Both the position numbers and the translations under genes were made by a program. Below are positions 1-37,968 of a stretch of DNA of 64,000 bases, piece by piece. The DNA lies in assembly GCA_963667665.2 (NCBI GenBank), contig OY763927.2, positions 1,536,001 through 1,600,000 on the forward strand, in the 5' to 3' direction. Numbering within the stretch: the first letter of the stretch is position 1; the number at the start of each line of letters is the position of its first letter. The notes below the pieces were generated by a model. It saw nothing but the letters and a program-made list of their open reading frames with translations, was not told where the DNA came from and made no database searches. This DNA comes from Nitrosopumilus sp. Lineage in GTDB: Archaea > Thermoproteota > Nitrososphaeria > Nitrososphaerales > Nitrosopumilaceae.

Positions 1-134
1 AAAAACAGACACCTTTCCAGGCAAGTGTTGGGATGACCCCAAATCCAGGAATTGCACTAATGGTTAATCTAAAAACTTTCCAAGTATTTCATCAAAATTA
101 TAATTTAGAGTTAGATAATATCCTTCAAAGTTAG
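1..134 (+). CDS. polB: DNA polymerase II (PolD) small subunit DP1, C-terminal fragment (gene starts before window)
   Basis: Frame 3 read by hand: KQTPFQASVGMTPNPGIALMVNLKTFQVF...*, resembling the DP1 C-terminal QTxFQ...PxPG motif; converges on cdc6 with a 24 bp overlap. Confidence 0.7.
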   Translation, partial: KQTPFQASVGMTPNPGIALMVNLKTFQVFHQNYNLELDNILQS

Positions 135-1313
135 ATCATCTTTGAAAGTCTTTTTTACCATTTCAGATGAGATTGTAAGTTTGTATTTTTTTGTCCTACC
201 ATGAATTCCTTGATGAATCAGTTTGCCAGTAATAATTCCAGATAATTCAATTTCACTTAACATTTGTGTAACTCTTCTTTGGGTTAGCTCATCCCGACCA
301 ACTGTCTTGCAGAGATTTTTGTATGATGAATAAATCTCTCCTGTGGAAGAGTCTTTTGCCTTCATAATTGCAAGAATGACCAGTTTTTCATGAAGCGGAT
401 ATGATTTCAGAGAAGTTTCTTCTTTGTTTTCTTCAATTTTTAGAGAGGCTTCTCTAACATGTTCAGCTGTAACTTTCTTTGATTGTTGCCTTTCTGCAAT
501 CTCTCCTGCTACACGAATTAGATCAATTGCCCTACGAGCATCACCGTGTTCTCCTCCTGCTAGTGCAGCACATAGATTTAGGGCTGAATCTTCAACAGTG
601 TTCTCAATAAAAGCCTCGTTAATTCTCTCTTCAAGAATTGTTTTAATTTGTTCAACATTATAATTAGTAAAGACAATCTCTTCCTCACCCAGACTACTAA
701 TTACTCTAGGATCTAGTTTTTCTTTGAATGTAAGGTCGTTGGAAATTCCAACCAAAGTTAGGGAGCCTTGTTTTAGTCGCTCATTTGCTCTTGTTAATTG
801 GTATAAGATGTCCTTACCTGTTTTTGAGACTAGTTGGGCTAGATAGTCAATCTCATCAATTACAAAAATTGCGTTAAGTTTTCCTTCATCAATTTTATTG
901 AGAATTCTTTTGAAGACCTCACTTATTGCAAGACCAGTTATGGGTAATTCCTTCTCATTTAGATTTAATTGTCTGCCTAGGCTGACTAATAATCCGTATA
1001 GTGTAGTCTCTTCTTTAGAGTTTGAATAAACGAGTTTAATTGGAAAATTTGATTTTTCTACTCTCTCTTGTATTTTAGAAATTACTTTTTTTACAACTAA
1101 TGTTTTACCAATTCCAGGTTTTCCATATACCAAAAGATTTGATGGTCTAGATTGTTTTAGTATTGGTAATAGTGATTGGGTAACTTGTTCTTGTTCAGTA
1201 TTTCTATGTTGGATGGTATTTGGTATGTATGATGTTTGAAGAATATCTCTGTTTTTTATTATAGACTTGCCTGATTCTGCTGCATCAAGTAATCTATCTA
1301 TTGGATCTGACAT
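111..1313 (-). CDS. cdc6: Orc1/Cdc6 replication initiator
   Basis: Walker A GKPGIGKT, Walker B FVIDEID, sensor GDARRAIDL, C-terminal wHTH; ATG at 1313 preferred, GTG at 1319 possible. Confidence 0.97.
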   Translation of the reverse strand: MSDPIDRLLDAAESGKSIIKNRDILQTSYIPNTIQHRNTEQEQVTQSLLPILKQSRPSNLLVYGKPGIGKTLVVKKVISKIQERVEKSNFPIKLVYSNSKEETTLYGLLVSLGRQLNLNEKELPITGLAISEVFKRILNKIDEGKLNAIFVIDEIDYLAQLVSKTGKDILYQLTRANERLKQGSLTLVGISNDLTFKEKLDPRVISSLGEEEIVFTNYNVEQIKTILEERINEAFIENTVEDSALNLCAALAGGEHGDARRAIDLIRVAGEIAERQQSKKVTAEHVREASLKIEENKEETSLKSYPLHEKLVILAIMKAKDSSTGEIYSSYKNLCKTVGRDELTQRRVTQMLSEIELSGIITGKLIHQGIHGRTKKYKLTISSEMVKKTFKDDLTLKDII

Positions 1314-1650
1314 ACTCACACACCTTTGTTTCCTATCAATAATATCATAACCATATTTGAATTAAGAGGGTATAGAAGAGAATAGTAACTCTAGTTTAGT
1401 TTGTAATTAATTATTTTTAGTTAGATTTTGATTTTCTTAAAAAAAAAATTATAAAAAATATAGAGTGGAAAGATTGGTGTGTGAGTTGAATCTAATTTTT
1501 ACTGTAAAGTTAACAGTTTGTTAATTTACTGTTATGAAATTATACAAAAAGCCTGTTTTGACCCTTTAATTTCCACTCCAGGCGTTAAGATTGATGTTAA
1601 CACTGTGAATAAACATGAAATTACCCCTTTAATTTCCACTCCAGGCATGA
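1314..1650. promoter_or_regulatory. Probable replication origin (oriC) with ORB elements and AT-rich DNA-unwinding element
   Basis: Exact 22-bp direct repeat CCCTTTAATTTCCACTCCAGGC at 1562-1583 and 1625-1646, whose reverse strand reads GGAGTGGAAATTAAAGGG (ORB-like with G-string). Inverted ORB-like pair at 1315-1337 and 1463-1485 flanks an AT-rich tract. Adjacent to cdc6. Confidence 0.85.
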
Positions 1651-1805
1651 ATATTTCCTAATTAGAGGGGATTTTACATGGGAGTGTGTTAATAACAAAA
1701 ATATGGTTAGGCGTGACCTACGCAGTCAATGTTAACAAACAAACTAGTTAACAAACATTCTTGGATCAATTGAATTGTTAACATTTGATCCTTTAGATCT
1801 CAAAG

Positions 1806-2192
1806 ATGGCTAAAAAACGTATTCGAATAGACATGAAGGACTCAGATGGTGCACGATTTGACATCAAAATAGAAGGTAATGTTACCAGAGAAAAGGTTCT
1901 CAAAATATTTGAAATGATGGACTTGATGAATATTGAAGAAGAACAAGAAATAATAAATATGGATTCAGTAGGCTCAAAAATTTGGCATATTGTGGATAAA
2001 TTCTTCCCAATAGGTAAATTTACCTCCACGACCATTCTTGAAAAATACGAAGATGAATTCAACGAACCAGTAAAACTTAGTATAATATCGACCTATTTGT
2101 CACGTTTTTCATCAAAAGGTAAGATTGATAGAGTTAGAACAGGTCGTGAATGGACCTATCAAGCCATTAAGATAGGCCAAAAACAACGATAA
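1806..2192 (+). CDS. Hypothetical protein with C-terminal winged-helix domain
   Basis: 128 aa; C-terminus FTSTTILEKYE...LSIISTYLSRFSSKGKIDRVRTGREWTY fits a wHTH with beta-wing. Confidence 0.75.
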   Translation: MAKKRIRIDMKDSDGARFDIKIEGNVTREKVLKIFEMMDLMNIEEEQEIINMDSVGSKIWHIVDKFFPIGKFTSTTILEKYEDEFNEPVKLSIISTYLSRFSSKGKIDRVRTGREWTYQAIKIGQKQR

Positions 2193-2196
2193 CTAA

Positions 2197-2358
2197 TCAA
2201 GAAATGGTTATTTTTCTGACAATTAACCGATCTTTTTCAAGAATCAACTTAACATATTCACCTTTTTGAACATCCATGTATTTCCTAAATTGTTTAGGAA
2301 TAGAAATTGTCCCGGCTGAGGTAATTTTTACCAAAACTTCATTCTCTTGAACAGACAT
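2197..2358 (-). CDS. AbrB/MazE/SpoVT-family DNA-binding microprotein (53 aa, not in ORF track)
   Basis: Hand translation MSVQENEVLVKITSAGTISIPKQFRKYMDVQKGEYVKLILEKDRLIVRKITIS*; swapped-hairpin pattern KI-x3-G-x-I-x-IPK-x2-R...I/V-x2-G. Confidence 0.85.
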   Translation of the reverse strand: MSVQENEVLVKITSAGTISIPKQFRKYMDVQKGEYVKLILEKDRLIVRKITIS

Positions 2359-2474
2359 ATTATAATTATAATCTTATAATATATATAATTTATAATTAAT
2401 AATGAATTGTCGTGTTTTCTTAAAAATTTGAATGAAAGAACAAAAATCTATTCTAGTAAAGGGAAAAGAATCTC

Positions 2475-3077
2475 TTATGCAATTATGGGACTAGATTGAA
2501 CATCATCAACCTTTGCTTTTCCCTTTTCAGTTATTGAATAAGTGTATGGTTTAGTTTCTATATTTCTTTGAACATAACCATCATCAAATAATTTCTTCAT
2601 TAATCTTGAAGTATGTTCTCTACTTTTCTTTAATGTGATTTGTATGTCACGTGATGTCACAGTTTTGTTTGTGATTAAATGCAACACATAATCTGTTGGG
2701 TTTGTGTATTCTATACTAGGAATGCTAGGGGTTGAAACTGGTTTTTCAGACATTACTTTTGGTTTACTAACTTCCTCAACTTCATTCTCTTTGATTTTGT
2801 TATTTACTAATTTTCCTAAGAGTTGTTTTAATTCAAAGTTAGAATCATCTGTTTTAGGCTCAATTCCTTGAATTTCTAAAGCATCTAGGCGTATTTTCAT
2901 GTCAATTAACTGCCTTTCATAGAATTCTAAACGCTCAGATTGTGGAACATCAGTCATTTCACTCTTTGATTTAATGAATGGAAGTACTTTGTAGAATACG
3001 TACAACCCACCTAAACCAACCACAAATGCTAAAATCACACTCAAAATCACCTCAGGATCAGGAATTTCTATTAACAT
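2475..3077 (-). CDS. Membrane-anchored coiled-coil protein with C-terminal winged-helix (MarR-like) domain
   Basis: Likely start ATG 3077 (MLIEIPDPEV); hydrophobic VILSVILAFVVGLGGLYVFY; heptad RLEFYERQLIDMKIRLDALE; wHTH TSRDIQITLKKSREHTSRLMKKLFDDGYVQR...YTYSITEKGK. Confidence 0.8.
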   Translation of the reverse strand: MLIEIPDPEVILSVILAFVVGLGGLYVFYKVLPFIKSKSEMTDVPQSERLEFYERQLIDMKIRLDALEIQGIEPKTDDSNFELKQLLGKLVNNKIKENEVEEVSKPKVMSEKPVSTPSIPSIEYTNPTDYVLHLITNKTVTSRDIQITLKKSREHTSRLMKKLFDDGYVQRNIETKPYTYSITEKGKAKVDDVQSSPIIA

Positions 3078-3203
3078 CACAAATTTACGCCTATGTTGTG
3101 ATTTATCGTGATTGAACAACATTATTTTACACTTTAGATTAACATACTGACACATACAATCACAAACACATCAACTACTTTTTCATATTCGTCACCACAA
3201 ACA

Positions 3204-3566
3204 TCACATATTACATGCCTTTCGAATAGTCATATCTATCACCCTAGTGATTTGTTCTTCTCTTTCTGGAAATATATCACCATCATTCATCACACGAATG
3301 TTCTCTGAAAGTTTTGATATCACATCAATATCATCAGGTAAGAGTATGCCTAGACCACGAAAAAGTATGATTGAATAGAATAATGCAATTAATTTCTCTC
3401 TTGACTGCCCAACTTGCCTGTAATATGCTCCTCTTGATATAGAAAATTTAGATTCTAGAAGATCCTTCTGATTTAAAATAATTTCAATTTGTCGCTCTGT
3501 AAATAGTGATTTTTTGATGATTTGACGAATAATATTGTTAAAATTAGATTCTTCAGACTCTGCCAT
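3204..3566 (-). CDS. Hypothetical protein, possible HTH DNA-binding protein
   Basis: 120 aa; FTERQIEII...ISRGAYYRQVGQSREKL resembles a sigma4/LuxR-like HTH. Confidence 0.65.
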   Translation of the reverse strand: MAESEESNFNNIIRQIIKKSLFTERQIEIILNQKDLLESKFSISRGAYYRQVGQSREKLIALFYSIILFRGLGILLPDDIDVISKLSENIRVMNDGDIFPEREEQITRVIDMTIRKACNM

Positions 3567-3631
3567 AGCTATACAAATCTGTATACTGACATTCCAATTA
3601 AACTTTAAAGAGTCATCTACAAACCTCCACT

Positions 3632-4384
3632 ATGACTGGAAATAAAGTTGAATCGTTCCTAAAATCGGAATTAAAAAAGAAAAATGCGTTATTGTTTGTA
3701 TTAATTGATTCTGAGGTATCACAATTAAAAACATCAAGTAAGCTTGCAAAAGATGTTGAAAAGATAGGGGCTTCTGCAATCCTAGTTGGAGGTTCCTCAG
3801 CCACAGATCAGATTGAGATGGCTCAAGTGGTTAAAGGCATCAAAAAAGGTGTTAAAATTCCAATTATCTTATTTCCTGGAAATGTTACTGGTGTTGTGCC
3901 TGATGCTGATGCAATCTTATTTAGCTCTCTAATGAACTCAGAGAATCCATACTTTATCACACAAGCACAAGCATTAGGTGCTCCAAGTGTTCTCAAATTT
4001 GGTTTAGAGCCACTTCCTACTGCTTATTTGGTGATAGGAGATGGAACCTCTGCTTGGTTTGTAGGTTCAGCACGAGGAATTCCATTTGAAAAACCAAAAA
4101 TTGCAGCTGCATATGCCCTTGCTGCTCAATTCCTTGGTATGAGATTTGTATATTTAGAAGCAGGTTCTGGTGCAAAAACCAGTGTTACACCAGAGATGGT
4201 TAAGACAGTAAGGCGTGCTTTTAATGGTTTCTTGATAGTAGGAGGAGGAATTAAAGATGTTAAAACTGCCCAGAGTTTGGTCAAAGCAGGAGCCAACGCT
4301 TTGGTTATTGGGACATTCCTTGAAAAAGGAGGAAGCATCAAAAAACTCCAAGAAATAGCAAAAGTAATTCAAAGAAGCAAGTAG
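3632..4384 (+). CDS. Geranylgeranylglyceryl phosphate synthase
   Basis: LVGGSS, PIILFPGN, YLEAGSGA, VGGGI motifs of GGGPS/PcrB. Confidence 0.95.
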   Translation: MTGNKVESFLKSELKKKNALLFVLIDSEVSQLKTSSKLAKDVEKIGASAILVGGSSATDQIEMAQVVKGIKKGVKIPIILFPGNVTGVVPDADAILFSSLMNSENPYFITQAQALGAPSVLKFGLEPLPTAYLVIGDGTSAWFVGSARGIPFEKPKIAAAYALAAQFLGMRFVYLEAGSGAKTSVTPEMVKTVRRAFNGFLIVGGGIKDVKTAQSLVKAGANALVIGTFLEKGGSIKKLQEIAKVIQRSK

Positions 4385-4396
4385 TAGAATTGTATT

Positions 4397-7300
4397 ATGT
4401 CAGATAATGATGCAATTTCTCGTATTAGTGATATTGAGATGCCAGATTATTATCGTGATTATTACTCAAATCTCACAACTGAAACAGTTTCCATATTTGA
4501 GAAAGCAGCAGTTGCAAAATCAAGTTTGGTAGACTCTTCAGGAATAATCGAGCCTAAAATTGCATTTGATTTGGCAGATCGAGTTTCTAAAATGCACGAA
4601 ATTGATATTGCTGAACCACTTAGAGAACTACTAAAAATAAATGGAAAGGAGCTTTCTGCACTTATTTTATCAAAGGAAATTGCTCTTGGTAAATACTCTC
4701 TTTCTGATGCCACCTTAGAAGACAAACTAGATCTTGCAGTTCGTGTAGGGTTGGCAATTGTTACAGAAGGAGTTACCATAGCTCCTTTACAAGGAATTAG
4801 TGAAGTAAAGATAAAGAAAAACAAAGATGGTACGGAATATCTTTCAGTTTCTATTGCAGGACCTATGCGTTCAGCAGGTGGAACAGAATCTGCTGTAACA
4901 ATACTGATTGCAGATCATGTTAGAAAGGCAGTTGGGTTAACAAAATACCAAGCAAATTCTTTTGATGATGAAACTGGTAGATTTGTAGAGGAATTAAGAA
5001 TTTATGAAAGAGAGGCCAGTAGTTTTCAATTTCATATATTAGATGAAGATATTGAACATGTCATTTCTCACCTTCCAGTTGAATTAGATGGAGTAGATAC
5101 GGATCCATTTGAGGTTGTAAATCACAAATCTATGGCTCGCATCAAAACTGATAGGGTTAGAGGAGGTGCTTTACGAGTCTTAAATGATGGATTGATTGGA
5201 AGATCTAAAAAACTTCTCAAAAGGATTGAACTGTACAATCTAGATGGCTGGGAATGGCTCAATGATCTTAAAGGCGTAGTTCAAACAGGTGAAAATCAGG
5301 AAGACGCAGCTGCTAAAAGAATGCGTGAAGTAATTACAGGAAGATCAGTCTTATCCATGCCTAAAAAGTTAGGTGGGTTTCGATTAAGATATGGAAGAGC
5401 ATGTAATACTGGTTTTGCAGCAGTAGGCATTCATCCTGTATTAGGCGAAATTTTAGATCATACCATAGTTGTAGGAACACAAGTAAAAATTGATGTTCCA
5501 GGAAAAGGAGCAACTGTTGCTTTTGTTGATTCTATTGATACTCCAATAGTTCGTCTAAAAAATGGAAGTGTGGTTAAGATTAGAGACATTAAACATGGAT
5601 TAGAAATTAAAAACGAAATTGAAAAGATCCTACATTTAGGAGATATTCTAATTTCATTTGGAGACTTTCTTGAAAACAATGCTCAACTTATTCCTTCAGG
5701 ATATGTTGAGGAATTTTGGATAGAAGAACTAAAACAAAAAATCCAAAAATATGAGCCTGATGATCAATTCATTAAACAATTTCTGACTAGAATACCCTCA
5801 ATAGATGAAGCCCTGAAAATTTCCCTTGACTTTCAAATTCCACTTCACCCACATTATCTATATTTCTGGGATAAAATATCATCAAAAGAATTTGCCCAAC
5901 TTTTAGAACCAAAAAAAGTTACTGAAACATCAATTGAATACTTTATACAAACCAAAAAAATTCTTGAAAAATTGGGAGTTCCTCATAAAGTTGAAAATGA
6001 AACTATAATCTTAGAAAATCTAGAGGCAAAAATTTTCTACAATCTATTGTTTAGAGAAAAACCAACAATTAGTGATTTATCAATTCCAAAAATTCTATCA
6101 AAATCATCAGGAATTCAAATTAAAAATAAATTCTCAACATCAATTGGAGTTCGAATTGGAAGACCTGAAAAAGCAGCTGCTAGACAAATGAAACCTCCAA
6201 CTCATGTCTTATTTCCAGTTAGTGATAAAGGAGGACCCACTAGAGATCTTCTAAAAGCATCAAGAAATGAACATTTCTTTACTAACATATTCAATAGATT
6301 TTGTAACGAATGTGATGAACCATCTATAGGCATAAAATGCTCTAAATGTGGCACTAAAACAACAATCATCTACAAATGTCCTAACTGTAGAGATACTCTC
6401 AAAGAACCATATTGTGAAAAATGTAAACGTAAAGCACAAACTCATTCCCACAAAGAATTTCCACTAAAAACAAAATTACTATCCGCTCAGGAAAAGATGG
6501 GATTACGTGTTAAAGAACCATTCAAAGGCGTCAAAGAGCTAATTAACCAAGATAGAATTGCTGAACCTCTAGAAAAAGGAATAGTACGTCAAAACTTTGG
6601 ACTTACAGTCTTCAAAGATGGGACTGTTAGATTTGATGCAACAAATTCTCCCTTAACTCAATTCAAACCATCATGGATTGGAACATCAATTCAGAAACTA
6701 AAGGAGCTTGGATATTCTCATGACATAGATGGAAAACCAATTACAGACTTGGATCAGATAATTGAACTTCGTATGCAGGATGTGATAATTCCTTATGAAA
6801 GCGGAAACTATCTAGTTTCTACCTGTAAATACATTGATACTCTTTTAGTGAAATTCTATGGAAAATCTAAATTTTACAAAGTAAAGAATACTGAAGAGCT
6901 TATCGGTCATTTAGTAATTGGGCTAGCTCCACATACTTCTGTTGGAATCGTAGGACGAATCATTGGATATACAGAAACCCATGTTTGTTTTGGAACTCCA
7001 AACTGGCACTCTGCAAAAAGAAGAGATGCTGATGGTGATGCTGATTCTATAATGCTTCTAATGGATAGTTTACTTAATTTCTCAAGACAGTTTCTTTCTG
7101 ATAGAATAGGTGGGCTAATGGATGCACCATTACTTATTCAACCACTTGTTTTACCTCATGAATCTCAACCTCAAGCACACAATCTTGAAGTTACAAAGTC
7201 ACTTCCTTTAGAATTCTTCGAGTCTACACTTGAACAGATCAAAGCATCAGACGTGTCATCTGTAGAAATTATAAAATCACGTCTAGAAACTGAAAGACAG

Positions 7301-7774
7301 TTTTATGATTATTTCTTTACACATTCAACTTCATCTCTAACCACTTCAAAATCTCGTAGTGCCTATTCTACACTTGGTTCAATGCTTGACAAATTTGATA
7401 TGCAAATTAGAAATGCAGAATTAATTGATGTGGTAAATCCTTCCGAAATTGTTTCAAATGTAATTTCAACACACCTAGTTCCAGATATAATGGGAAATCT
7501 TAGAGCGTATGCAAGACAAAACTTTAGGTGCACAGGCTGTGGAAAATCATTTCGTCGAATGCCTCTAATTCAAACATGTGTCTGTGGTCATAAACTAATT
7601 GCTACAATTACAAGAGGCTCTGTTGAAAAATATCTAAAACTTGCTAAAAGACTTGTTGAGAAATATGATGTTGGTGAATATCAAAAAGGAAGAATTCATG
7701 CTCTATCAGATGAAATTGAATTAGTATTTGGTAAGAGTAAAGGTGACCAATCACTTCTTACTGATTACGCCTAG
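4397..7774 (+). CDS. polC: DNA polymerase II (PolD) large subunit DP2
   Basis: 1125 aa; GPMRSAGGT, GFRLRYGR, catalytic KRRDADGDAD, Cys clusters; no intein. Confidence 0.98.
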   Translation: MSDNDAISRISDIEMPDYYRDYYSNLTTETVSIFEKAAVAKSSLVDSSGIIEPKIAFDLADRVSKMHEIDIAEPLRELLKINGKELSALILSKEIALGKYSLSDATLEDKLDLAVRVGLAIVTEGVTIAPLQGISEVKIKKNKDGTEYLSVSIAGPMRSAGGTESAVTILIADHVRKAVGLTKYQANSFDDETGRFVEELRIYEREASSFQFHILDEDIEHVISHLPVELDGVDTDPFEVVNHKSMARIKTDRVRGGALRVLNDGLIGRSKKLLKRIELYNLDGWEWLNDLKGVVQTGENQEDAAAKRMREVITGRSVLSMPKKLGGFRLRYGRACNTGFAAVGIHPVLGEILDHTIVVGTQVKIDVPGKGATVAFVDSIDTPIVRLKNGSVVKIRDIKHGLEIKNEIEKILHLGDILISFGDFLENNAQLIPSGYVEEFWIEELKQKIQKYEPDDQFIKQFLTRIPSIDEALKISLDFQIPLHPHYLYFWDKISSKEFAQLLEPKKVTETSIEYFIQTKKILEKLGVPHKVENETIILENLEAKIFYNLLFREKPTISDLSIPKILSKSSGIQIKNKFSTSIGVRIGRPEKAAARQMKPPTHVLFPVSDKGGPTRDLLKASRNEHFFTNIFNRFCNECDEPSIGIKCSKCGTKTTIIYKCPNCRDTLKEPYCEKCKRKAQTHSHKEFPLKTKLLSAQEKMGLRVKEPFKGVKELINQDRIAEPLEKGIVRQNFGLTVFKDGTVRFDATNSPLTQFKPSWIGTSIQKLKELGYSHDIDGKPITDLDQIIELRMQDVIIPYESGNYLVSTCKYIDTLLVKFYGKSKFYKVKNTEELIGHLVIGLAPHTSVGIVGRIIGYTETHVCFGTPNWHSAKRRDADGDADSIMLLMDSLLNFSRQFLSDRIGGLMDAPLLIQPLVLPHESQPQAHNLEVTKSLPLEFFESTLEQIKASDVSSVEIIKSRLETERQFYDYFFTHSTSSLTTSKSRSAYSTLGSMLDKFDMQIRNAELIDVVNPSEIVSNVISTHLVPDIMGNLRAYARQNFRCTGCGKSFRRMPLIQTCVCGHKLIATITRGSVEKYLKLAKRLVEKYDVGEYQKGRIHALSDEIELVFGKSKGDQSLLTDYA

Positions 7775-7775
7775 A

Positions 7776-9098
7776 TTATCTCAATTTGACGTATTCGTAA
7801 GCACCTAATTTATTATCAAAACAGAATTTGACTTTTTGATAATTTTTTCTCAATGCTTTAACTTTTGGAAGTAACTTCTTTGGGTCCTTTTTCTCAATCA
7901 CTACTTGTTTAATCAAAGATGCAATTTCCTGCATCTCATTCTTTTTCATTCCAAGTCGTGTAATTTCAGAAACTCCTAATCTAATTCCACTAGGATGAAA
8001 ATAATTTCTTCCTGCCTTAATATCTCCTGGAATAAGTTGTCTGTTAACAATGATGTTAGCTTTTTCTAAATCAGCTTCTACTTTTCCACCATCAAAATAA
8101 TCTAAAACATTGACTGCAATTTGATGTGATTCTGTAAATCCTCTATTTTCTCCTAATACCTTGAATCCCATATCACTCAAAGCCTCTGCAAATAACTTCG
8201 CATTTTTAATTACTTGAGTTGCATAATCTTTTCCAAACTCTAAGGCTTCTGCAAAGGCAATTGCTTTTCCAGCCATATGATGAATGTGATGACTACTTGT
8301 AAGACCTGGAAACGTTGCTTTTTTGATAACCTCTTCATGCTCTTCAGATCCTAAAACTAGTCCTCCTTGAGGTCCAAACAAAGTTTTATGCGTACTCATA
8401 GTCATAGTATCTGCACCTTCTCGTAAGGGGTCTTGGAATTTTCCACCAGCAATTAATCCAGCAACATGAGCTGCATCATAATTAATGTGCATATCATAAC
8501 TCTTTAGAAAATCTGATAATTCTTTGACAGGATGTGGAAACAAGAATAATGAACCACCAAACATTGCCATCTTTGGAAGACGACCATCTTTTTTTAGGGC
8601 CTTTACTTTCTGTTTTGTCTTATCAACATCAATTGTCATTTCTTCAGCATTAAATGGATAGAACTCTATCTCTAATCCATGAACTAAACCGGCAGTTCCA
8701 AAATGCTCCTTTTTACCATGTGAAATATGTCCACCTGCAGGAATAGAAGGTGCCAGCATTACATCACCTGGATTAGTAAAAGAAGAATACACTACAAGAT
8801 TTGCAACAACTCCTGAAATTGGTCTTACATCAACAAATTTTGCTTTGTATAATTTTTTTGCCAATTTCATACATTCAAACTCTACATCATCAATGTAGAT
8901 ACAACCAGCATACACCCTTTCTCCAGGCCATCCTTCAGCATATCTATTACCAAAATCTGAAATTATTGCTTCTCGAACAGCAGGACTTGGAATATTTTCA
9001 CTTGCAATCAATGGAATTGAATTTTCAAACCATTTGTGATGTTCTTTTAATTTAGCGAAAATTTTATCGTAAGATTCTTTATTTTGTGACTTTACCAT
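7776..9098 (-). CDS. glyA: Serine hydroxymethyltransferase
   Basis: LIASEN, YAEGWPGERVYAG, STHKTLFGPQGG (PLP Lys). Confidence 0.97.
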   Translation of the reverse strand: MVKSQNKESYDKIFAKLKEHHKWFENSIPLIASENIPSPAVREAIISDFGNRYAEGWPGERVYAGCIYIDDVEFECMKLAKKLYKAKFVDVRPISGVVANLVVYSSFTNPGDVMLAPSIPAGGHISHGKKEHFGTAGLVHGLEIEFYPFNAEEMTIDVDKTKQKVKALKKDGRLPKMAMFGGSLFLFPHPVKELSDFLKSYDMHINYDAAHVAGLIAGGKFQDPLREGADTMTMSTHKTLFGPQGGLVLGSEEHEEVIKKATFPGLTSSHHIHHMAGKAIAFAEALEFGKDYATQVIKNAKLFAEALSDMGFKVLGENRGFTESHQIAVNVLDYFDGGKVEADLEKANIIVNRQLIPGDIKAGRNYFHPSGIRLGVSEITRLGMKKNEMQEIASLIKQVVIEKKDPKKLLPKVKALRKNYQKVKFCFDNKLGAYEYVKLR

Positions 9099-9201
9099 AT
9101 TTTGAAATTTGATTTTCCCAATTTAAAAACACCGATACTGCCTCAGATTTACACGATCTGATCTGCAAGGTATAAAAGGGGAATCTAGAGTTTCAGCATC
9201 T

Positions 9202-10923
9202 ATGGGTATGCAAGCCACTTCTAAGGGCACTATGCCAGTTGTATTGCTAAAAGAAGGCGGTACAGAAACTAAAGGCAGAGATGCACAAAAGAATAACATT
9301 GCTGCATGCAAAATTATTGCTGAGATTGTTCAAACCAGCCTAGGTCCACGAGGCATGGATAAAATGCTAGTTGACTCTTTAGGAGATGTTACTATTACTA
9401 ATGATGGTGCAACCATTCTAAAAGAAATTGATGTTCAACATCCAGCTGCAAAAATGCTAGTTGAAATTTCTAAAACTACTGACAATGAAGTAGGAGATGG
9501 TACAACTTCAGTCGTTGTGTTGGCAGGTGCTTTACTTGATAACGCTGAATTATTAATTGATCAAGATGTTCATCCAACAATTATTGTTGATGGTTATAGA
9601 AAAGCTGCAAAAAAGGCAAAACAGTTTCTTGAAAGTATTTCTGATAAAGTATCTGCAAATGACAAAAACATTCTAACCAAAATTGCAAAAACCTCAATGC
9701 AAACTAAACTTGTTAGAAAAGATTCTGATCAACTTGCAGAAATTGTTGTAAAGTCTATCCTTGCTGTTTCAGAAAAAAATGGTGAAACTTACAATGTTGA
9801 TATTGATGATATTAAAGTAGAAAAGAAGGCTGGTGGTTCTATCAAAGATATGATGATTATTCAGGGTATTGTTCTTGACAAAGAAATTGTTAATGGAGGA
9901 ATGCCTACTAGAATTACTGAAGCTAAAATTGCATTAATTAATACCGCATTAGAAATTAGTAAAACTGAAACTGATGCAAAAATTAACATTTCAAATCCTC
10001 AACAACTTAAAGCATTTCTAGATGAAGAAAACAGAATGCTCAAGACAATGGTTGACAAAGTCATTGGCTCTGGGGCAAATGTGGTTTTATGTCAAAAAGG
10101 TATTGATGATATGGCACAACATTATCTAGCAAAATCTGGAATCATTGCAGTTAGAAGAATTAAAGAAAGTGATCTTGAAAAACTTTCAAGAGCAACAGGT
10201 GCCAGAATAGTTACAAACCTTGATGATCTTTTTGAAAAAGATCTAGGCAATGCAGATCTAGTTGAAGAAAGAAAAATTGAAGAAGACAAATGGGTATTTG
10301 TTGAAGGCTGCAAACATCCAAAATCAGTTACCTTACTTCTTCGTGGAGGCTCACAAAGAGTAGTTGATGAAGTTGAACGATCTGTTCATGACGCACTAAT
10401 GGTTGTAAAAGATGTAATGGAAAATCCTTCAATTGTTGCAGGTGGTGGAGCTCCTGAAACATTTGCTGCAACTAAAATAAGAAGTTGGGCAAAATCTTTG
10501 GAAGGAAGAGAACAATTAGCTGCTGAAAAATTTGCTGATGCTTTAGAATCAATTCCATTAATACTTTCAGAAAATGCTGGAATGGATCCAATTGATACGA
10601 TGACATATCTTCGTTCTAGACAACAGAAAGGAGAGAAATGGACGGGAATTGATGTTATGAAAGGAAAGATTGCTAATATGAAATCAAGTGATATTATTGA
10701 ACCACTCACAGTTAAACTTCAAATTGTATCTGCAGCATCAGAAGCTGCCTGTATGATTCTTAGAATTGATGATGTAATTGCTACCCAAAAATCTGCAGGT
10801 GGTCCACCTGGAGGAGGAGAAGGAGGAATGCCACCTGGAATGGGTGGAGGAATGCCACCTGGAATGGGTGGAGGAATGCCACCTGGAATGGGTGGAATGC
10901 CTGACATGGGCGGAATGATGTAA
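9202..10923 (+). CDS. ths: Thermosome (group II chaperonin) subunit
   Basis: [23 protein letters not shown]; GGM-rich tail. Confidence 0.98.
10822..10893 (+). repeat. 24-bp coding tandem repeat x3 (GGMPPGMG) in thermosome tail
   Basis: GGAGGAATGCCACCTGGAATGGGT three exact copies. Confidence 0.9.
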
Positions 10924-12770: not shown

Positions 12771-13328
12771 ATGTCTGAATCAAATCAAATCGACATCAAC
12801 TCTTTACATCAAACAGTTTTGCTAGAAACTGAAAATGATTCTATATTAGAAATCGATCAAAACTTTTACAGGAATCTTTCTGACTTTATAGGAAATTTAA
12901 GAAAACAAGAATTTGATGGTGTAGAAAGTAAAATCAAAGATGCATTGATAGAAATGGCAACTGAATTAACATCATTACTAATACATATCAGATTAGAAAA
13001 AATTACTCAATCAAAAGACATCCAATTTGGAAATCTTTTAGATGAAGAAAAATTCATTTTGGATTCACAAGAGGAACAAAGAGAAAGGATTGAAATGATT
13101 CTTTCTGCTACAATTAACGGAAAATCAAAATTCCTTGAATCATTAGCTCAAAATCACAAAACAAAGAAAATCGTCATTAGATTTCTTAAAGAAGTAGAAG
13201 AAATTGTGGGTGCTGACCTTGAAAAATATGGTCCTTTCAAAACTGAAGATATTGCTACTATTCCATATGAAAATGCTCAGGCCTTAATTGCTAAAAATGC
13301 TGCAACTAAAATCCGTTGGGATGATTAG
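12771..13328 (+). CDS. GINS complex subunit (Gins51/Gins15 type)
   Basis: Helical A domain then C-terminal B domain IVGADLEKYGPFKTEDIATIPYENAQALI. Confidence 0.85.
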   Translation: MSESNQIDINSLHQTVLLETENDSILEIDQNFYRNLSDFIGNLRKQEFDGVESKIKDALIEMATELTSLLIHIRLEKITQSKDIQFGNLLDEEKFILDSQEEQRERIEMILSATINGKSKFLESLAQNHKTKKIVIRFLKEVEEIVGADLEKYGPFKTEDIATIPYENAQALIAKNAATKIRWDD

Positions 13329-15002: not shown

Positions 15003-15076
15003 GGGATCGTAGTCTAGCTTGGTATGATACTAGTCTGGGGGACTAGTGATCGCAGGTTCAAATCCTGCCGGTCCCA
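15003..15076 (+). tRNA. tRNA-Pro(GGG)
   Basis: Acceptor GGGATCG/CGGTCCC-A, anticodon arm CTAGT-CTGGGGG-ACTAG, T-arm GCAGG-TTCAAAT-CCTGC. Confidence 0.95.
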
Positions 15077-21212: not shown

Positions 21213-22156
21213 TTAATCAAAATTGTCCTTGTCAAGCTTTTATGCCTATAGATTTCATATTTCTTTAATCCACTTAACTTCAAATTACTAGCTAATTCTT
21301 TTTTGTACATAATTGCTATTTTCTTACGTTTGGGCATAATTGAAAAAAATTTCTTTAGGATTTCTTCGGGTTTTTCTGATGCTTTTGATGCTCTACCATA
21401 TGGTAAGTCAGTGACAATTCCATCAAACTTTCCGGAGAGCTTTGAGAATTCTTGAAAATCTGATTTCAAAATCTTTGATTTATACCCATTTACCTTGAGA
21501 TTTTCTTTTGAAATTTCATACATTTTTTCATCAAAATCTAATCCAATTGCATGAATACCCATAGATTCAGCCTCCAAAAGTGTAGTTCCAGTACCACAAA
21601 ATGGATCACATACAGTTTCTCCTTCTTTTAACCCAATCAGGTTTATCATAACTCTTGTCAATTTCCAATCCAATTCATGAGGATATTTTTTAATTTTTTT
21701 GGGTCTGATTTTTTCTTTAATTCGTTCTGAAAATCCAAAAAAGTTTTCATTTTCTGTAAAAATTAAATATATTGTAATGTCAGGATCTTCCAAATCTACT
21801 TTTGCATGAGAGAATTTTGATATCATATCTCCCATAGAGCTTTCTAATTCTGGAATATTGAATTGTTTTGATGATAAATTAATTATTCTACACACAAAGG
21901 TCTTTGCATTTTTTAATACTTCAAAATTATCCTCATTTAAAAATAATCCTGACATCTTCCGTAATATTTGTCCAGAAACTTTAACAAATGAAGCACGCTT
22001 TGTAATTTCAATCCAATTTGTTTTTGATTGGATGATTATCAAATTAGAAATTACTTTAACTTTAGAAAATCTATCATACATTTTTGATAATGCAATTATT
22101 TCATCAGTTGCAAGCTCTAGATAATCTTTAGATAAAATAAAAAAACTTTCTGGCAT
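21209..22156 (-). CDS. THUMP-domain tRNA (guanine-N2) methyltransferase, Trm11-like
   Basis: DPFCGTGT, TDLPYG, N-terminal THUMP-like region. Confidence 0.85.
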   Translation of the reverse strand: MPESFFILSKDYLELATDEIIALSKMYDRFSKVKVISNLIIIQSKTNWIEITKRASFVKVSGQILRKMSGLFLNEDNFEVLKNAKTFVCRIINLSSKQFNIPELESSMGDMISKFSHAKVDLEDPDITIYLIFTENENFFGFSERIKEKIRPKKIKKYPHELDWKLTRVMINLIGLKEGETVCDPFCGTGTTLLEAESMGIHAIGLDFDEKMYEISKENLKVNGYKSKILKSDFQEFSKLSGKFDGIVTDLPYGRASKASEKPEEILKKFFSIMPKRKKIAIMYKKELASNLKLSGLKKYEIYRHKSLTRTILIK

Positions 22157-23037
22157 TACATTATTGCCTTTGTAATTGTATTAGAAACATCAACAACTGA
22201 TGTTTTACCTGGAATTGTATTTGTACTAACAATACTTGTAACTCCTGCTTTTCTTATCTTCTTTTCAGCATCATTCATTAAAAGAGCATGAGTACATGCA
22301 ACATACACTCTCTTACATTTTTGTTTTTTAAGAAATTGTGTTGCCTTGATGATACTTCCTCCAGTACTAATCATATCATCAACCAAAATTAGATCTCTAC
22401 CAACAACTGTATCTGAATTTTTTGTTTTAATTTGCACTTTGCCTGTTTTTTTATCTCTTTTTTTCTCTAGAGCAATATACTTTGTTCCAAATTCTTTTGC
22501 AAATTCTTTTGCTCTATTTTTTCCTCCTTGATCAGGAGAAACAACTAAAGGGTTTTTCAGGCTCAATTTCTTGAAATATTTCACAAGATCTGGAATTGCA
22601 GTGACGTTCTTTGATTTGATAGTAAAATGCTTGAGACCTATTGCACTGTGAATATCAACAGCAATTATTTTTGATGCACCAACTCCTTTAAACAATTTTG
22701 CAAGAACTTTCATCGTAATAATTTCACCAGGTAAAAATTCTCTGTCTTGTCTTGCATATCCCATATATGGAATTACAGCAATTACTTCAGATGATGTTTC
22801 TTTTGCTTTTGAAATTAATGATAATGCTTGAACTAGATTTGTATCAACAGGAGGATAAATTGATTGTACAACAATGGACTTTCTTTTAGATAGATTTCCT
22901 TTAAGAGTGATCTTGCTTTCTCTATCAGGAAAAACTCTAACTTCTGATTTTACAAGATTAGCTTTTAATTTTTTTGATAATTTTTTAGCTAGTTCTTCTG
23001 AAGATTTTCCTGAAATAACTGATATCTTACTCAACAA
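22156..23037 (-). CDS. prs: Ribose-phosphate pyrophosphokinase
   Basis: PYMGYARQD, VSPDQGG, VDDMISTGGS. Confidence 0.96.
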   Translation of the reverse strand: MLSKISVISGKSSEELAKKLSKKLKANLVKSEVRVFPDRESKITLKGNLSKRKSIVVQSIYPPVDTNLVQALSLISKAKETSSEVIAVIPYMGYARQDREFLPGEIITMKVLAKLFKGVGASKIIAVDIHSAIGLKHFTIKSKNVTAIPDLVKYFKKLSLKNPLVVSPDQGGKNRAKEFAKEFGTKYIALEKKRDKKTGKVQIKTKNSDTVVGRDLILVDDMISTGGSIIKATQFLKKQKCKRVYVACTHALLMNDAEKKIRKAGVTSIVSTNTIPGKTSVVDVSNTITKAIM

Positions 23038-23076
23038 GAAAATGTGATTTAATGTGATTCTTAAGTTTTGAGAAAA

Positions 23077-32823: not shown

Positions 32824-33537
32824 TTATTTAGTTACGTGACCTTTCAAATCTTTTACAATATTTTTAATTTCTTTTTCAGTTAGAGCATCTTGTCTGCTCA
32901 TCAGAAAATGATTGATTCTATCCAAGCTTGACACAAAAACAGAACGATACCTCTTATTGTATTCAAAATTTCCCTTTACAGATAACAGAACATTTGTTAC
33001 ACGTACCTTTCTGAATATGTCTTGAAGTGAAATCCATAAAACTCTACCAGCTCTTTCAGTTTGTTCGTAGGGGCTAAAGCTTTTGTTATTATTTGCAAAT
33101 TGATTACTCCAGTTTTTTACTTCAATCATGTAGACTCCTTTAGGACAAACAACTACAATATCCATTTGAGCTGATTTTAGATTCTTTTTTCCGTTATAGG
33201 TAACCCAATGAGATAATTCAAGTCTCACTCCACACAAAATATGATAACTGTCATCAAGCTTTAACAATTCCTCGATGACTTCATTTTCTCCATGGGTTCC
33301 TGTAACATATTTTCCAACTTTTTTATACTGAAATTTATCAACTTGTCTTTTGTAATGATATCTTTTAACTTCTGAAAAAACAGTTCCAAGTAAAGATTTT
33401 TTTCCCTGACGTTGTTTTTGCATTTTTCCATAAAATTCCTTTCTGACCCTATCCATATCATCAACGTTTTTGACTTCGTTTGGTAACTTGTTTAGGAGAC
33501 TCCTTTCACTGTCTGCCATTCCATAAATGATAGCCAT
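32824..33537 (-). CDS. NERD-domain nuclease-related protein
   Basis: GTHGENEV, AQMDIVVVCPKGVYMIEVKNWS, SPYEQ. Confidence 0.88.
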   Translation of the reverse strand: MAIIYGMADSERSLLNKLPNEVKNVDDMDRVRKEFYGKMQKQRQGKKSLLGTVFSEVKRYHYKRQVDKFQYKKVGKYVTGTHGENEVIEELLKLDDSYHILCGVRLELSHWVTYNGKKNLKSAQMDIVVVCPKGVYMIEVKNWSNQFANNNKSFSPYEQTERAGRVLWISLQDIFRKVRVTNVLLSVKGNFEYNKRYRSVFVSSLDRINHFLMSRQDALTEKEIKNIVKDLKGHVTK

Positions 33538-34356: not shown

Positions 34357-35334
34357 TCATATATAATTATTTTTATCTTTAGCATACCAAATAATGAAAT
34401 CTGAAACTGCAGACATGTATTCTTTTGCAAGTCCAGCTGTTTTCTTGAATGTGATTAAATGTATAAATTTTTTTTTCCCAAATATTTCATCACAAAGAAC
34501 TCTAACTAAATGAACATTTGCATCTCCTATTTGTATAAAACAACTACCACTTTCATGAAGTAATCTTTTTGCTAAAAGTAATCTAGTTCGTAAATATGAA
34601 AGATACGAATGAATACCCAGTTCCCATGTATCTTTAAATGCTTTAATCATTTCTGGCTCTTGTGTCAGATCATCATCTTTTCTATCAGTGACAGTTTTAG
34701 TTTGTGTAAATGGTTGAAAGTTTGAACCATATGTGATTCCATAAGGAGGATCTATGAAGACCATCTGGATTTTTTCTCCCATTTCTTCTTTTTCCAAAAG
34801 CGAGTTCATTACAAGAAGTGAATCACCTGCAATCAAACGATTGGACCAGCTTTGATCATGCTTGTAAAATTCAATTGCGTCCCTTAATGGAGGATTATTT
34901 TCTGGCATTTCAAAAAAAGGAAATAATGTTTCTTGTTCTTGGTCTTGTTTTTTTAATATTTTACCAATTATTGTCATAGGATCAATTTTTTCGTGTCTGT
35001 GAAGTGATACTGTATCAACTTCAAAATTAGAACTTTCTACTTTTCCAGACCATTCAAGTTGTGGATCTAGACGAGGATCAAATGAATATTTTTTTGCAGG
35101 CAAATCTACATCAGATTCTGGAGTCACTAGACCAACTGGTGGATTGTTAGCCCTTTTTTCTTTTTCGTGAATGTATTGTTTAATTGCAATTTTTTTCTTT
35201 TTCGGGTCTCTAATTGTGGCAAGCTTTGTTCTCTTTCTAGATTTTCTTGTAGATTTTCTTGTAGATTTTCTTGTAGTTTTAGTTGTATCAAGTTCTTTTA
35301 GTCCAAATTTTGATAGTATTTTTTTCCTTGCCAC
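34357..35334 (-). pseudogene. Truncated adenine DNA methyltransferase (beta class, type III Mod-like)
   Basis: DPQLEWSGK, NRLIAGDSL, catalytic FIDPPYG, YLSYLRTRL; stops after WYAKDK with no FxGxG SAM-binding motif I. Confidence 0.8.
35238..35273 (-). repeat. 12-bp tandem repeat x3 encoding (TRKS)3 in MTase N-terminus
   Basis: TAGATTTTCTTG x3 on + strand. Confidence 0.85.
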
Positions 35335-35383: not shown

Positions 35384-36490
35384 TCATAATCCTATATTTG
35401 GTACAGTGATATGATTTGACTCAAAATAATCTATGAGATTTTTTAATTTATTTTCAAGACTTTGATATTTTTCATTCATCTGTTTTAGATTATTTTCAAC
35501 TGCTTTGAAATCTGACATTGTAAGATATGGTTCTGCCTCTAGATACATCTCTTTTTTCTTATCTTCTGATAACTGATAGTATGTATCTAAATAGAAACTA
35601 TGACCCATTATAGCCTCGGCAAAGTCTCTCCCTACAGCATTTCCAACTGTTGTCCTGAAGAACTTTCTAAGGGAGTGAAGATGTATTGCTTGTCTCCCAT
35701 TCTCATCTTTAACATTAAGATCTGGAATTGCTCTAACTATTTCCCTTAACTCAGTCTGCAATGTCTTGATGATTGACTCAGCAATAAATGGGCCTCTATG
35801 TCTATACACTGTTGCAAATATTTGCTTCTCAATAATCTGTGGATCTTTTATTCCTTCAAACCAATTATGGTATCTTTTCAAATAATCTTTTAGTGCATTT
35901 GTTGCTTCTGCTGTCAAAAAGCATTCCCTTGATTGTCTTGTCTTTGTTGTGTTTGCTCTAAGATACACTTTGATTGGATTTTCATTAAAATCAATATCTG
36001 AAATCTTTAGATTAACAACCTCGCCAATTCGCATTCCAGTGGACACTGCAACAATTATTGCCAAGTATAATTTTGGTTTTGCATTTCGTAACAACCTTGC
36101 AATAATCTCTTTGTCAAGTGGCATCTCTCGTATTCTGATTACCTTGGGTACCTTGACTATCAGTTTAAGATCTTCTGAATCAATCTTTATTCCCATATGT
36201 CTAAGATATCCCTTATTCACAGATAATGCATTACGAATTGTTCTTGCACCTCTGCCTGTCTTATCCATATACACAACAAATTCTTTGAAAATCTTGAGAA
36301 TGTCTATCTTCTCTTCTTTATAGTAGTCAAGTAGGTCATACTCATCCATATCATAATTTTCTTTCAAAAATTCTCTAAATAGATGAATTCTGGTTTTGTA
36401 GGATTTTATGGTATTATGGCTATGTGAAATAACATACATAGAATCTAGATATTCTGTTTCATAATTTTCTCTGCATAATTGAAGTGTCAT
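35384..36490 (-). CDS. Tyrosine recombinase / integrase
   Basis: STGMRIGE (R), TKT (K), HSLRKFF (HxxR), MGH, DTYY (Tyr); N-terminal SAM-like domain; C-terminal coiled coil. Confidence 0.93.
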   Translation of the reverse strand: MTLQLCRENYETEYLDSMYVISHSHNTIKSYKTRIHLFREFLKENYDMDEYDLLDYYKEEKIDILKIFKEFVVYMDKTGRGARTIRNALSVNKGYLRHMGIKIDSEDLKLIVKVPKVIRIREMPLDKEIIARLLRNAKPKLYLAIIVAVSTGMRIGEVVNLKISDIDFNENPIKVYLRANTTKTRQSRECFLTAEATNALKDYLKRYHNWFEGIKDPQIIEKQIFATVYRHRGPFIAESIIKTLQTELREIVRAIPDLNVKDENGRQAIHLHSLRKFFRTTVGNAVGRDFAEAIMGHSFYLDTYYQLSEDKKKEMYLEAEPYLTMSDFKAVENNLKQMNEKYQSLENKLKNLIDYFESNHITVPNIGL

Positions 36491-37221: not shown

Positions 37222-37968
37222 TTGACTTTTGGAGCAAAAACAAGTGGTTCAGACGATCTAAAGGCTATAATCTCTGCAATATCAACACTTGTTGAAGAAG
37301 CTACTTTTGTTGCAACAGCAGAAGGAATTACATTTAGAGGAATGGATCCATCACATGTTGCACTTATTGATATATCCTGGCCTAATTCAGCATTTGAAAA
37401 ATATGAATGTGATAGTGATATAAAATTTGGAGTAAGAATAGATGAATTTTCAAAACTTATCAAAAGAGCAGACAAAAAAGATAGTATAGAGATTAGTATC
37501 TCTGAGCAAAATATGTTACTTGTAACAGTTGGAAAAAATAAAAAATACAAAATGCGTTTAATTGAAAGTTCTGCAACTGACACTCCGTTGCCAAAAATTC
37601 CTTATGATTCAAAAATTACTTTGTCTTCATCAAAATTTGATAAGATTCTTGGCGATGTACAAGTTGTATCTGACTATCTAACAATTCAAACATCTGATTC
37701 AAAAGTAGATTTTTCAGGTAAAGGTGACTCTGGTGAAGTTGTAATTGATCTTGACAAAAATGATGAAGACATTGAAGAAATTTTTTCAAAAGCAGACAGT
37801 GTAGGTACTTACAGTCTTGAATATCTTAATCCAGTGATAAAAGCAGTAGGAAATACTGCAGGCTTGATTACATGTGAGTTTTCGAGCGCAAAACCACTGA
37901 GAATTGAATTCAAAGTAGCAAATATTGGCAGAATTCACTTTTACTTGGCTCCACGCGTGGAAAGTTAA
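37222..37968 (+). CDS. pcn: PCNA sliding clamp
   Basis: GMDPSHVALID, YSLEYL, FYLAPRVE. Confidence 0.97.
   Translation: MTFGAKTSGSDDLKAIISAISTLVEEATFVATAEGITFRGMDPSHVALIDISWPNSAFEKYECDSDIKFGVRIDEFSKLIKRADKKDSIEISISEQNMLLVTVGKNKKYKMRLIESSATDTPLPKIPYDSKITLSSSKFDKILGDVQVVSDYLTIQTSDSKVDFSGKGDSGEVVIDLDKNDEDIEEIFSKADSVGTYSLEYLNPVIKAVGNTAGLITCEFSSAKPLRIEFKVANIGRIHFYLAPRVES

Follow-up and report, generated by a model that had tools for sequence, protein, structure and literature searches.

A conserved GTGAT array over the gene for a predicted membrane-anchored winged helix-turn-helix protein near a putative replication origin in Nitrosopumilaceae

In a 64,000-nucleotide stretch of the genome of a Nitrosopumilus species (assembly GCA_963667665.2, contig OY763927.2, positions 1,536,001 to 1,600,000; hereafter the window), copies of the word ATCAC or its complement GTGAT are packed into a dense array close to an oriC-like region. 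The array lies over the upstream region, start codon and coding sequence of a minus-strand gene (2475-3077) for a 200-aa protein with a predicted transmembrane (TM) segment and a predicted winged helix-turn-helix (wHTH) domain, here called the TM-wHTH protein. Judged by its comparison across relatives, the array is a cis element under direct sequence selection. The reading that we favour, to which we give a probability of about one half, is that the array is a cooperative docking and autoregulatory platform of the TM-wHTH protein encoded there.

The initial annotation of this DNA had listed 15 ATCAC/GTGAT positions between 2635 and 3319 together with GTCAC at 2646, 2656 and 3191, and every coordinate was exact on recount. 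Twelve of the copies form the core array (3034-3323). The other three form a distal sub-cluster (2635-2675), in which ATCAC on the sense strand and GTGAC words lie inside wHTH codons (residues ~135-148). The window holds 166 copies in total (2.6 per kb), and its 300-bp segments contain a mean of 0.78 copies (standard deviation 1.05). The peak segment, starting at 3021-3031, holds 12, more than 10 standard deviations above the mean (by our own arithmetic the Poisson probability of at least 12 given 0.78 is ~5e-11 per segment), which bears out the earlier description of the array as dense and non-random. A 16th copy is present at 3506-3510, in the 5' part of the gene for a 120-aa protein (3204-3566, minus strand), a conserved open reading frame (ORF). 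Outside 2300-3600, the best 300-bp segment has 5 copies, near 40,000; this second-densest spot (39940-40330) lies inside a DUF7482 gene (39446-40909).

Relatives were collected by scanning species-representative genomes with the Cdc6 protein, which gave 80 loci, all from Nitrosopumilaceae and with 87-94 % Cdc6 identity. Fourteen were excluded because the contig ends before both genes are complete (L004, L006, L010, L011, L012, L015, L021, L023, L037, L043, L047, L050, L062 and L071), and 66 were scored. The DNA examined thus comprised the 64 kb of the window and flanks of up to 17 kb within one family. Gene order is identical in every locus whose contig extends far enough, and the array is kept at the same place in the orthologous loci, with 8-15 copies (median 12) in 66/66, a set covering many marine ammonia-oxidising archaea. 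The orthologous region of ~300 bp is also the densest 300-bp segment of the whole locus (up to 17 kb) in all 66. Individual copies are retained to differing extents: those at 3289, 3098 and 2671 in 66/66 loci, 3319 and 3076 in 65, 3108 in 63, 3238 and 3159 in 61, 3203 and 2635 in 59, 3276 in 58, 3034 and 2651 in 57, and 3046 in 45. The site at 3247 has the orientation seen in the window in 5 of the 66 loci, the reverse-complement word in 39 and GTCAT in 20. The GTCAC at 3191 is conserved in 0/66.

Codon use points to the DNA word, rather than the encoded proteins, as the object of this conservation. In the long ORFs of the window, GTG accounts for 7 % of 590 Val codons and ATC for 12 % of 826 Ile codons. 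The 120-aa gene has five conserved Val codons, and four of them, like Val10 and Val14 of the TM-wHTH gene, are the uncommon GTG codons within motif copies that the initial annotation had picked out. GTG is kept at the four in the 120-aa gene in 65-100 % of loci and at Val10 and Val14 in 71 % and 89 %, respectively, and ATC encodes Ile135 and Ile147 of the TM-wHTH gene in 100 %. Six motif copies fall within the last 40 codons of the 120-aa gene, at Val-Ile dipeptides spelt GTG-AT. Where the encoded amino acid is conserved, the TM-wHTH gene has a major-codon fraction of 0.912 in the motif (n=6) and 0.739 outside it (n=96; one-sided Mann-Whitney p = 0.004), and the 120-aa gene one of 0.918 (n=6) and 0.803 (n=82; p = 0.055), the motif n of 6 being small in each case. 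Some ATC codons outside motif copies are likewise conserved.

The spacer between the two genes was aligned for 12 sequences, namely the window and 11 of the 66 loci, hand-picked to span the lowest and highest copy numbers, and GTGAT counts were read by eye from this alignment. The promoter-distal part of the spacer is scrambled, yet 11/12 sequences retain 1-4 exact GTGAT words, and in three loci (L080, L022 and L068) the spacer is ~20 nt longer and filled with extra TGTGATTA copies. The word persists or multiplies where the spacer is scrambled, and we therefore regard the array as a selected DNA element. That it arose by chance, or as a by-product of amino acid or codon composition, has a negligible likelihood. 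Such an origin would be favoured by the shortness of the word (5 bases) and by the recurrence of Val-Ile dipeptides in the two proteins, but the density, the presence of the array in every scored locus and the fixed rare synonymous codons all speak against it, as do the copies kept in non-coding DNA, the scrambled part included. Amino acid composition, which the initial annotation had raised as a possible source of the motif, hence does not account for the array.

The array is centred on a near-invariant block (3090-3143, minus strand; column conservation in 67 and in 12 sequences) immediately upstream of the TM-wHTH start and on that start codon, which is why an autoregulatory operator is probably at least part of its function, as far as position and conservation can indicate. 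The block, presumed to be the core promoter, contains the A/T-rich TATA-like boxes AAATAATA (~3120-3127) and GATAAAT (~3100-3106). The second of these, ~26 nt upstream of the ATG at 3077, is flanked by the copies at 3108 and 3098, both of which read ATCAC on the sense strand. In 65/66 loci the ATG itself sits within a motif copy (GTGATG). A repeat search also revealed a 13-nt repeat, AAT[A/T]TGTGATGTT on the sense strand, with one copy (3073-3085) over the TM-wHTH start and another (3200-3212) over the stop codon of the 120-aa gene. The gene calls of the initial annotation hold generally, except that the TM-wHTH gene most likely starts at ATG 3077 (200 aa) and not at 3155; in 10 of the 12 aligned sequences, a single additional base between ATG 3077 and the ATGs upstream of it breaks the longer frame (a 226-aa reading).

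Most of the core copies are arranged as direct-repeat dyads 9-13 bp apart (3289/3276, 3247/3238, 3108/3098 and 3046/3034), and the copy at 3203 has a dyad partner in relatives. The pattern GTGAT-N3-9-GTGAT has 5 matches in the window, 3 of them inside the array, and 1.13 are expected in total; in the closest complete relative (L002, 17.2 kb), 4/4 matches are inside the array and 0.25 are expected. Dyads recur at an approximate 36-50 bp. Strict helical phasing was considered and rejected, as the dyad starts 3293, 3251, 3207 and 3163 are spaced 42-44 bp apart but dyad centres across the whole array are 27-50 bp apart. Eleven bases of the distal sub-cluster (TGTTTGTGATT) recur, inverted, in the core site 3153-3168.

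The sense (minus) strand reads GTGAT for 9/12 core copies in the window and for 10/12 in most orthologues, and because of this bias the plus-strand GC skew is ~-0.5 across 3001-3300. Such a bias could reflect an element acting in RNA, with sense GUGAU words pairing with the 3' tail of 16S rRNA, in which we presume AUCAC to occur, or forming a hairpin at the start codon, and an invariant 7-bp stem, ATCACAA-N14-TTGTGAT, does end at the ATG. This is nevertheless very improbable. Both orientations occur, one site flips among orthologues, the distal sub-cluster is oppositely oriented, and copies lie inside the promoter, which is presumed not to be transcribed. The RNAalifold covariation term is -0.15 kcal/mol, with a compensatory change in 1/50 pairs, and Rfam gave no match on 1-6000 apart from a chance-level snoRNA elsewhere.

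The claim that the array overlaps the gene for a TM and wHTH protein also stood, with 12-15 copies over the start and coding region of a gene whose product has this architecture in the model. Its N-terminus, acidic and 7 residues long, is followed by an uncharged hydrophobic helix (~8-33) and then lysines; the hydrophobic stretch, VILSVILAFVVGLGGLYVFY, is modelled by AlphaFold2 as a helix with a predicted local distance difference test (pLDDT) score of ~90. By the positive-inside rule we infer an N-out/C-in topology. In the same model (overall pLDDT 71), long helices at 46-71 and 81-93 are followed by a low-confidence and poorly conserved linker (94-121) and by the wHTH domain at 127-194, which matches Pfam HTH_27 (E 1.6e-5; 25.5 bits against a cut-off of 22.2). 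The model shows a TM segment and long helices in the N-terminal half; in the MarR family proper, N- and C-terminal helices on either side of the wHTH form the dimer interface.

A Foldseek search placed MarR-type repressors first (MarR, ZitR and MepR), with PadR, ArsR-type proteins and AspA of pNOB8 lower. Alignments of ~70 columns, i.e. the wHTH core, had a low root-mean-square deviation (rmsd), and longer ones had rmsd values of 16-17 Å. A PDB profile search with the 200-aa protein gave E >= 0.12. At the level of the model, the resemblance is a generic wHTH one. In the Atlas, the protein falls among Nitrososphaerota HTH_27 clusters, and Bathyarchaeota MarR/TrmB clusters are weak leads only. 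Across 26 sequences (25 from the 66 loci), helix 2, the recognition helix and the wing are invariant; together with the variable linker, this fits an invariant DNA target.

On the reading given even odds above, the 12-15 GTGAT words would be protein-binding sites forming a high-avidity platform for the local membrane-anchored MarR-like protein. The TM-wHTH protein, placed N-out/C-in, would dimerise via its juxtamembrane helices, and the flexible linker of ~30 residues would allow its two wHTH domains to engage half-sites (GTGAT) of either orientation. Dyads with about one helical turn between sites, recurring every 36-50 bp, would span the core promoter and the protein's own ATG, so that several dimers could assemble cooperatively and repress the gene, as in plasmid centromere/operator arrays. 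If the TM-wHTH protein is the binder, ~300 bp of origin-proximal DNA and the distal sub-site 360 bp away would be held at the cytoplasmic membrane.

Several points weigh against this reading. Any of four small proteins encoded locally, or else a distant factor, could be the binder, and co-variation is uninformative on the alignments available because the motif and the recognition helix are both invariant. The promoter is one that we infer, and the TM assignment is a prediction from a hydrophobic stretch and the AlphaFold2 model, which at the coiled coil proposed in the initial annotation shows long helices only. With at least 12 sites, which extend 250 bp upstream and into the coding sequence of two genes, the array exceeds the needs of simple autorepression. 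All of the comparative evidence derives from one family, in which Cdc6 is 87-94 % identical, and the scan covered 64 kb and the fetched flanks, such that a wider regulon or further clusters may lie elsewhere.

Family scans of the ORFs place the array in a replication island. The orc1/cdc6 gene (111-1319, minus strand) adjoins an oriC-like region (1314-1800) that includes the AT-richest stretch (G+C content down to 0.24 at 1301-1600, compared with 0.318 for the window), a 28-nt inverted repeat bracketing it (arms 1314-1341 and 1459-1486) and two 31-nt direct repeats (1562-1592 and 1625-1655) resembling origin recognition boxes (ORB). These features suggest that the region fires as an origin. 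Next come a plus-strand gene (1806-2192) whose 128-aa product weakly matches a wHTH and a minus-strand gene (2197-2358) for a 53-aa protein of AbrB/SpoVT-MazE type, then the TM-wHTH and 120-aa genes, and beyond these the plus-strand genes for geranylgeranylglyceryl phosphate (GGGP) synthase, the first committed lipid-synthesis gene (3632-4384), and the PolD large subunit (4397-7774). In L002 the PolD small subunit gene lies directly beyond cdc6 (9186-10646 of that locus). As PolD genes flank both sides when the window and this relative are combined, the four small genes lie inside the island. Other replication genes found near the origin in the window are those for GINS51 (12771-13328) and PCNA (37222-37968).

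In the oriC and 128-aa-gene promoter region, GTTAAC occurs 5 times within ~270 bp (1509-1782), from a total of 15 in the window. The set includes a direct repeat of GTTAACAAACA (two copies, 16 bp apart) as well as AATGTTAACAA / TTGTTAACATT, a perfect inverted pair of 11 nt, and is a candidate second set of binding sites, distinct from the GTGAT array. Two loci depart from a spacing that is fixed in the others: in L028 the 128-aa and AbrB-type genes are ~870 bases further apart (about 6260-7155), and in L069 the distance from cdc6 to the 128-aa gene, across the origin region, is ~220 bases greater (about 7300-8000).

The position of the array raises a further explanation, namely that its selected function is to hold DNA near oriC at the membrane, or at some position in the cell, via the TM protein, with autoregulation secondary. 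Origin positioning or segregation would benefit, in an organism without known segregation machinery, and we consider this explanation a possibility of lesser weight. The comparative evidence for a selected multi-site element applies to it equally, and the number and tight clustering of the sites are nearer to plasmid centromeres than to ordinary operators. The predicted anchor lacks an extracellular sensor domain (only ~7 residues precede the hydrophobic helix), and the place of the array, ~1.4-1.7 kb from oriC when measured to the ORB-like repeats, is the same in the DP1-cdc6-oriC-...-DP2 island of every locus whose contig reaches there. RicO provides a precedent in its published account, and a passage in a review (PMC7617429) describes archaeal DNA segregation as not understood. 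On the other side, the protein's own promoter and start lie at the centre of the array, fixed gene order inside one family is weak evidence of a link to oriC, and the motif is at background elsewhere in the 64-kb window (44 TGTGATW outside the cluster against 38.4 expected).

The initial annotation had reported no ParA-type ATPase, and none was found among the ORFs scanned, which also counts against a tether. No ParA/SegA-type protein (CbiA/ParA/AAA_31-type) was detected in the 41 window ORFs of at least 170 aa (E <= 1e-5), in another three ORFs of the window and eight of L002 that lie beyond cdc6 (E <= 0.001), or in six origin-side genes, the 226-aa reading of the TM-wHTH gene included. From the centromere-like tether proposed in that annotation, a non-random, conserved array near oriC survives; the placement of the array is operator-like and dispersed sites were not seen in the window.

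A different binder is as possible as such a tether, and hence we advance it just as tentatively. The array would then be the operator of another factor controlling the membrane protein, with candidates among the other small local proteins (the 120-aa one, the 128-aa one with the wHTH match and the 53-aa one of AbrB type) and among global or cell-cycle regulators; in a variant, the membrane protein would be a regulator responsive to a signal or to membrane state, with its real targets elsewhere. The block keeps four small genes of DNA-binding type together across loci, archaea are known to have membrane-bound regulators (e.g. ArnR), and the 120-aa protein is highly conserved (77-96 % identity across loci; mean column identity 89 %), with half of the array in the 3' end of its gene. 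A further exact dyad, GTGATTTAATGTGAT at 23044-23058, is found in the 39-bp gap upstream of a phosphoribosyl pyrophosphate (PRPP) synthetase gene (22156-23037, minus strand). This dyad also lies downstream of an MscS-like channel gene, and could be a second target or due to chance. The only other dyad outside the array is at 40219-40232, within the DUF7482-gene spot. Two such dyads, where ~1.1 are expected overall, are about the chance level, so a regulon within the window was rejected, and this tells against another factor.

It also tells against another factor that the 120-aa protein has no recognisable DNA-binding domain in the searches made. The 'HTH-like' label that it had been given was not sustained: it has no Pfam or NCBIfam family, a PDB profile search gave 0 matches at E <= 10, and its AlphaFold model (pLDDT 49.8) is unusable. 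Pfam searches of all 26 aligned members gave chance-level matches only (e.g. FliH, E 0.0085), and 0 PHROGs families and no tblastn match to phage records were found. The Atlas places it in hypothetical clusters confined to Nitrososphaerota, with one weak lead, Sigma70_r4 (score 0.82), carried by 14 % of that cluster. Its segment LFTERQIEIIL...GAYYRQV is what we take to be reminiscent of the HTH of LuxR, sigma-70 region 4 or Tfx-type proteins, a likeness that we do not claim. A complex prediction for residues 40-200 of the TM-wHTH protein with the 120-aa protein (score 0.01; mark 0.32) counts neither way. Family scans revealed no ParBc or ribbon-helix-helix (RHH) family in the four small proteins. 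The 128-aa wHTH protein was rejected as a paralogue of the TM-wHTH protein (hhalign probability 0.1 %), and a mobile-element origin of the block was likewise rejected, the PHROG matches being only generic wHTH and antitoxin-like.

Elsewhere in the window, genes for a tyrosine integrase (35384-36490), a DNA methylase (34357-35334) and a NERD nuclease-related protein (32824-33537) are clustered and may represent an integrated mobile element. There is no adjacent tRNA gene, the only tRNAs in the window being at 15003 and 52342.

Conservatively read, the locus has regulatory words written into two coding sequences via rare synonymous codons and Val-Ile dipeptides, and, if the model is right, describes an unstudied sensor-less class of archaeal membrane-tethered regulator. 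Chromosome positioning and segregation outside the Sulfolobales is an open question, and a passage in the same review (PMC7617429) calls even the mechanism of SegAB not understood. For this question the locus supplies a concrete pairing in an abundant ocean archaeon, that of a DNA element for which comparison indicates selection with a membrane-anchored predicted DNA binder encoded on top of it, beside a single origin, and the array is a defined 300-bp probe region. A more speculative and rather unlikely proposal is that Nitrosopumilaceae carry a minimal, motor-less origin-anchoring module, in which an integral-membrane, sensor-less wHTH protein coats a centromere-like array, with its 12-15 GTGAT sites, 1.4 kb from oriC. 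If so, the module would pin newly replicated origins to the membrane and the same array would set the dosage of the anchor by autoregulation. Origin position or initiation would possibly be coupled to membrane growth, the GGGP synthase gene being the next gene. Thaumarchaeota would then have their first candidate for a chromosome-positioning device, one that corresponds to RicO, Noc or RacA but is made of unrelated parts.

We found no description of the array or the protein family in the literature, supplementary tables (e.g. File S1 of PMC10269533 and the N. maritimus transcriptome and proteome) not being covered. The closest match to the word is the parS of pSM19035, bound by the omega protein and described in PMC9499535 as 7-10 copies of 5'-WATCACW-3' in either orientation over the par promoters, serving as both operator and centromere. 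The same source gives the omega heptads as contiguous and in a 7-bp register, with at least 4 contiguous copies needed. Both arrays consist of a short non-palindromic word, and 7 of the 15 window copies fit WATCACW. However, start-to-start spacings in the core array are 9-51 bp and never 7, the local proteins are of wHTH and AbrB type rather than RHH, and no ParA partner was found among the ORFs scanned. The shared word is most likely a coincidence or convergence.

In the plasmid systems R1 parC-ParR and F sopC-SopB, about ten or more sites flank or cover the promoter of the binder's operon, and cooperative coating by a soluble binder gives both autoregulation and a segregation complex that works with an NTPase motor (ParM or SopA). 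Their repeats are longer and regularly tandem, unlike the words found here. ParABS and SegAB share with the locus the clustering of repeats beside the gene for the binding protein, here a candidate one, but no ParA/SegA ATPase, ParBc or RHH protein was found in the scans. AspA of pNOB8 and SegB of Sulfolobus are likewise small wHTH proteins that assemble on clustered sites near their own genes. AspA appeared at Foldseek ranks 19 and 27 (TM-score normalised to the target 0.66-0.69 over 70 columns), a match to the generic wHTH core only, with MarR, ZitR and MepR ranking higher. Both AspA and SegB are soluble and partnered with ParA/SegA ATPases, none of which was found here.

Noc with its NBS sites and RacA with ram, both of Bacillus subtilis, are sequence-specific DNA binders with a membrane-binding element and origin-proximal sites. 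RicO with ricS in Staphylococcus aureus is, in its published account, of the same kind, and this combination is the likeness to the locus. Theirs are amphipathic helices or partner proteins, whereas an integral TM helix is predicted here, and their sites, scattered across tens to hundreds of kb, are not gathered in one 300-bp cluster. No MerR (RacA-like) or ParBc (Noc-like) match was found in the family scans of the local proteins. On the tests made, which for RicO concern the distribution of sites, the array and protein are not of the ParABS, SegAB, RacA, Noc or RicO type.

Ss-LrpB of Sulfolobus binds cooperatively to boxes ~40 bp apart in its own control region and wraps the DNA. Several regularly spaced boxes in a regulator's own control region are thus common to both, but Ss-LrpB is a soluble Lrp-family protein with three 15-bp palindromic boxes and no sites in coding regions.

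Transmembrane transcription regulators (TTRs) are defined in a passage of PMC10269533 by a predicted TM segment and a DNA-binding domain, and are given there as common in archaea, with 1,384 in 404 species. With its predicted TM region and predicted DNA-binding domain, the 200-aa protein falls within this definition. The likeness to ToxR and CadC in bacteria, and to ArnR and ArnR1 in Sulfolobus, regulators that act on DNA from the membrane, lies in that combination. ArnR has an N-terminal HTH and C-terminal TM segments. The protein studied here differs in having, as modelled, an N-terminal anchor with ~7 residues outside, no sensor domain and a C-terminal MarR-like domain, and its only visible target is the array of 12-15 sites over its own gene.

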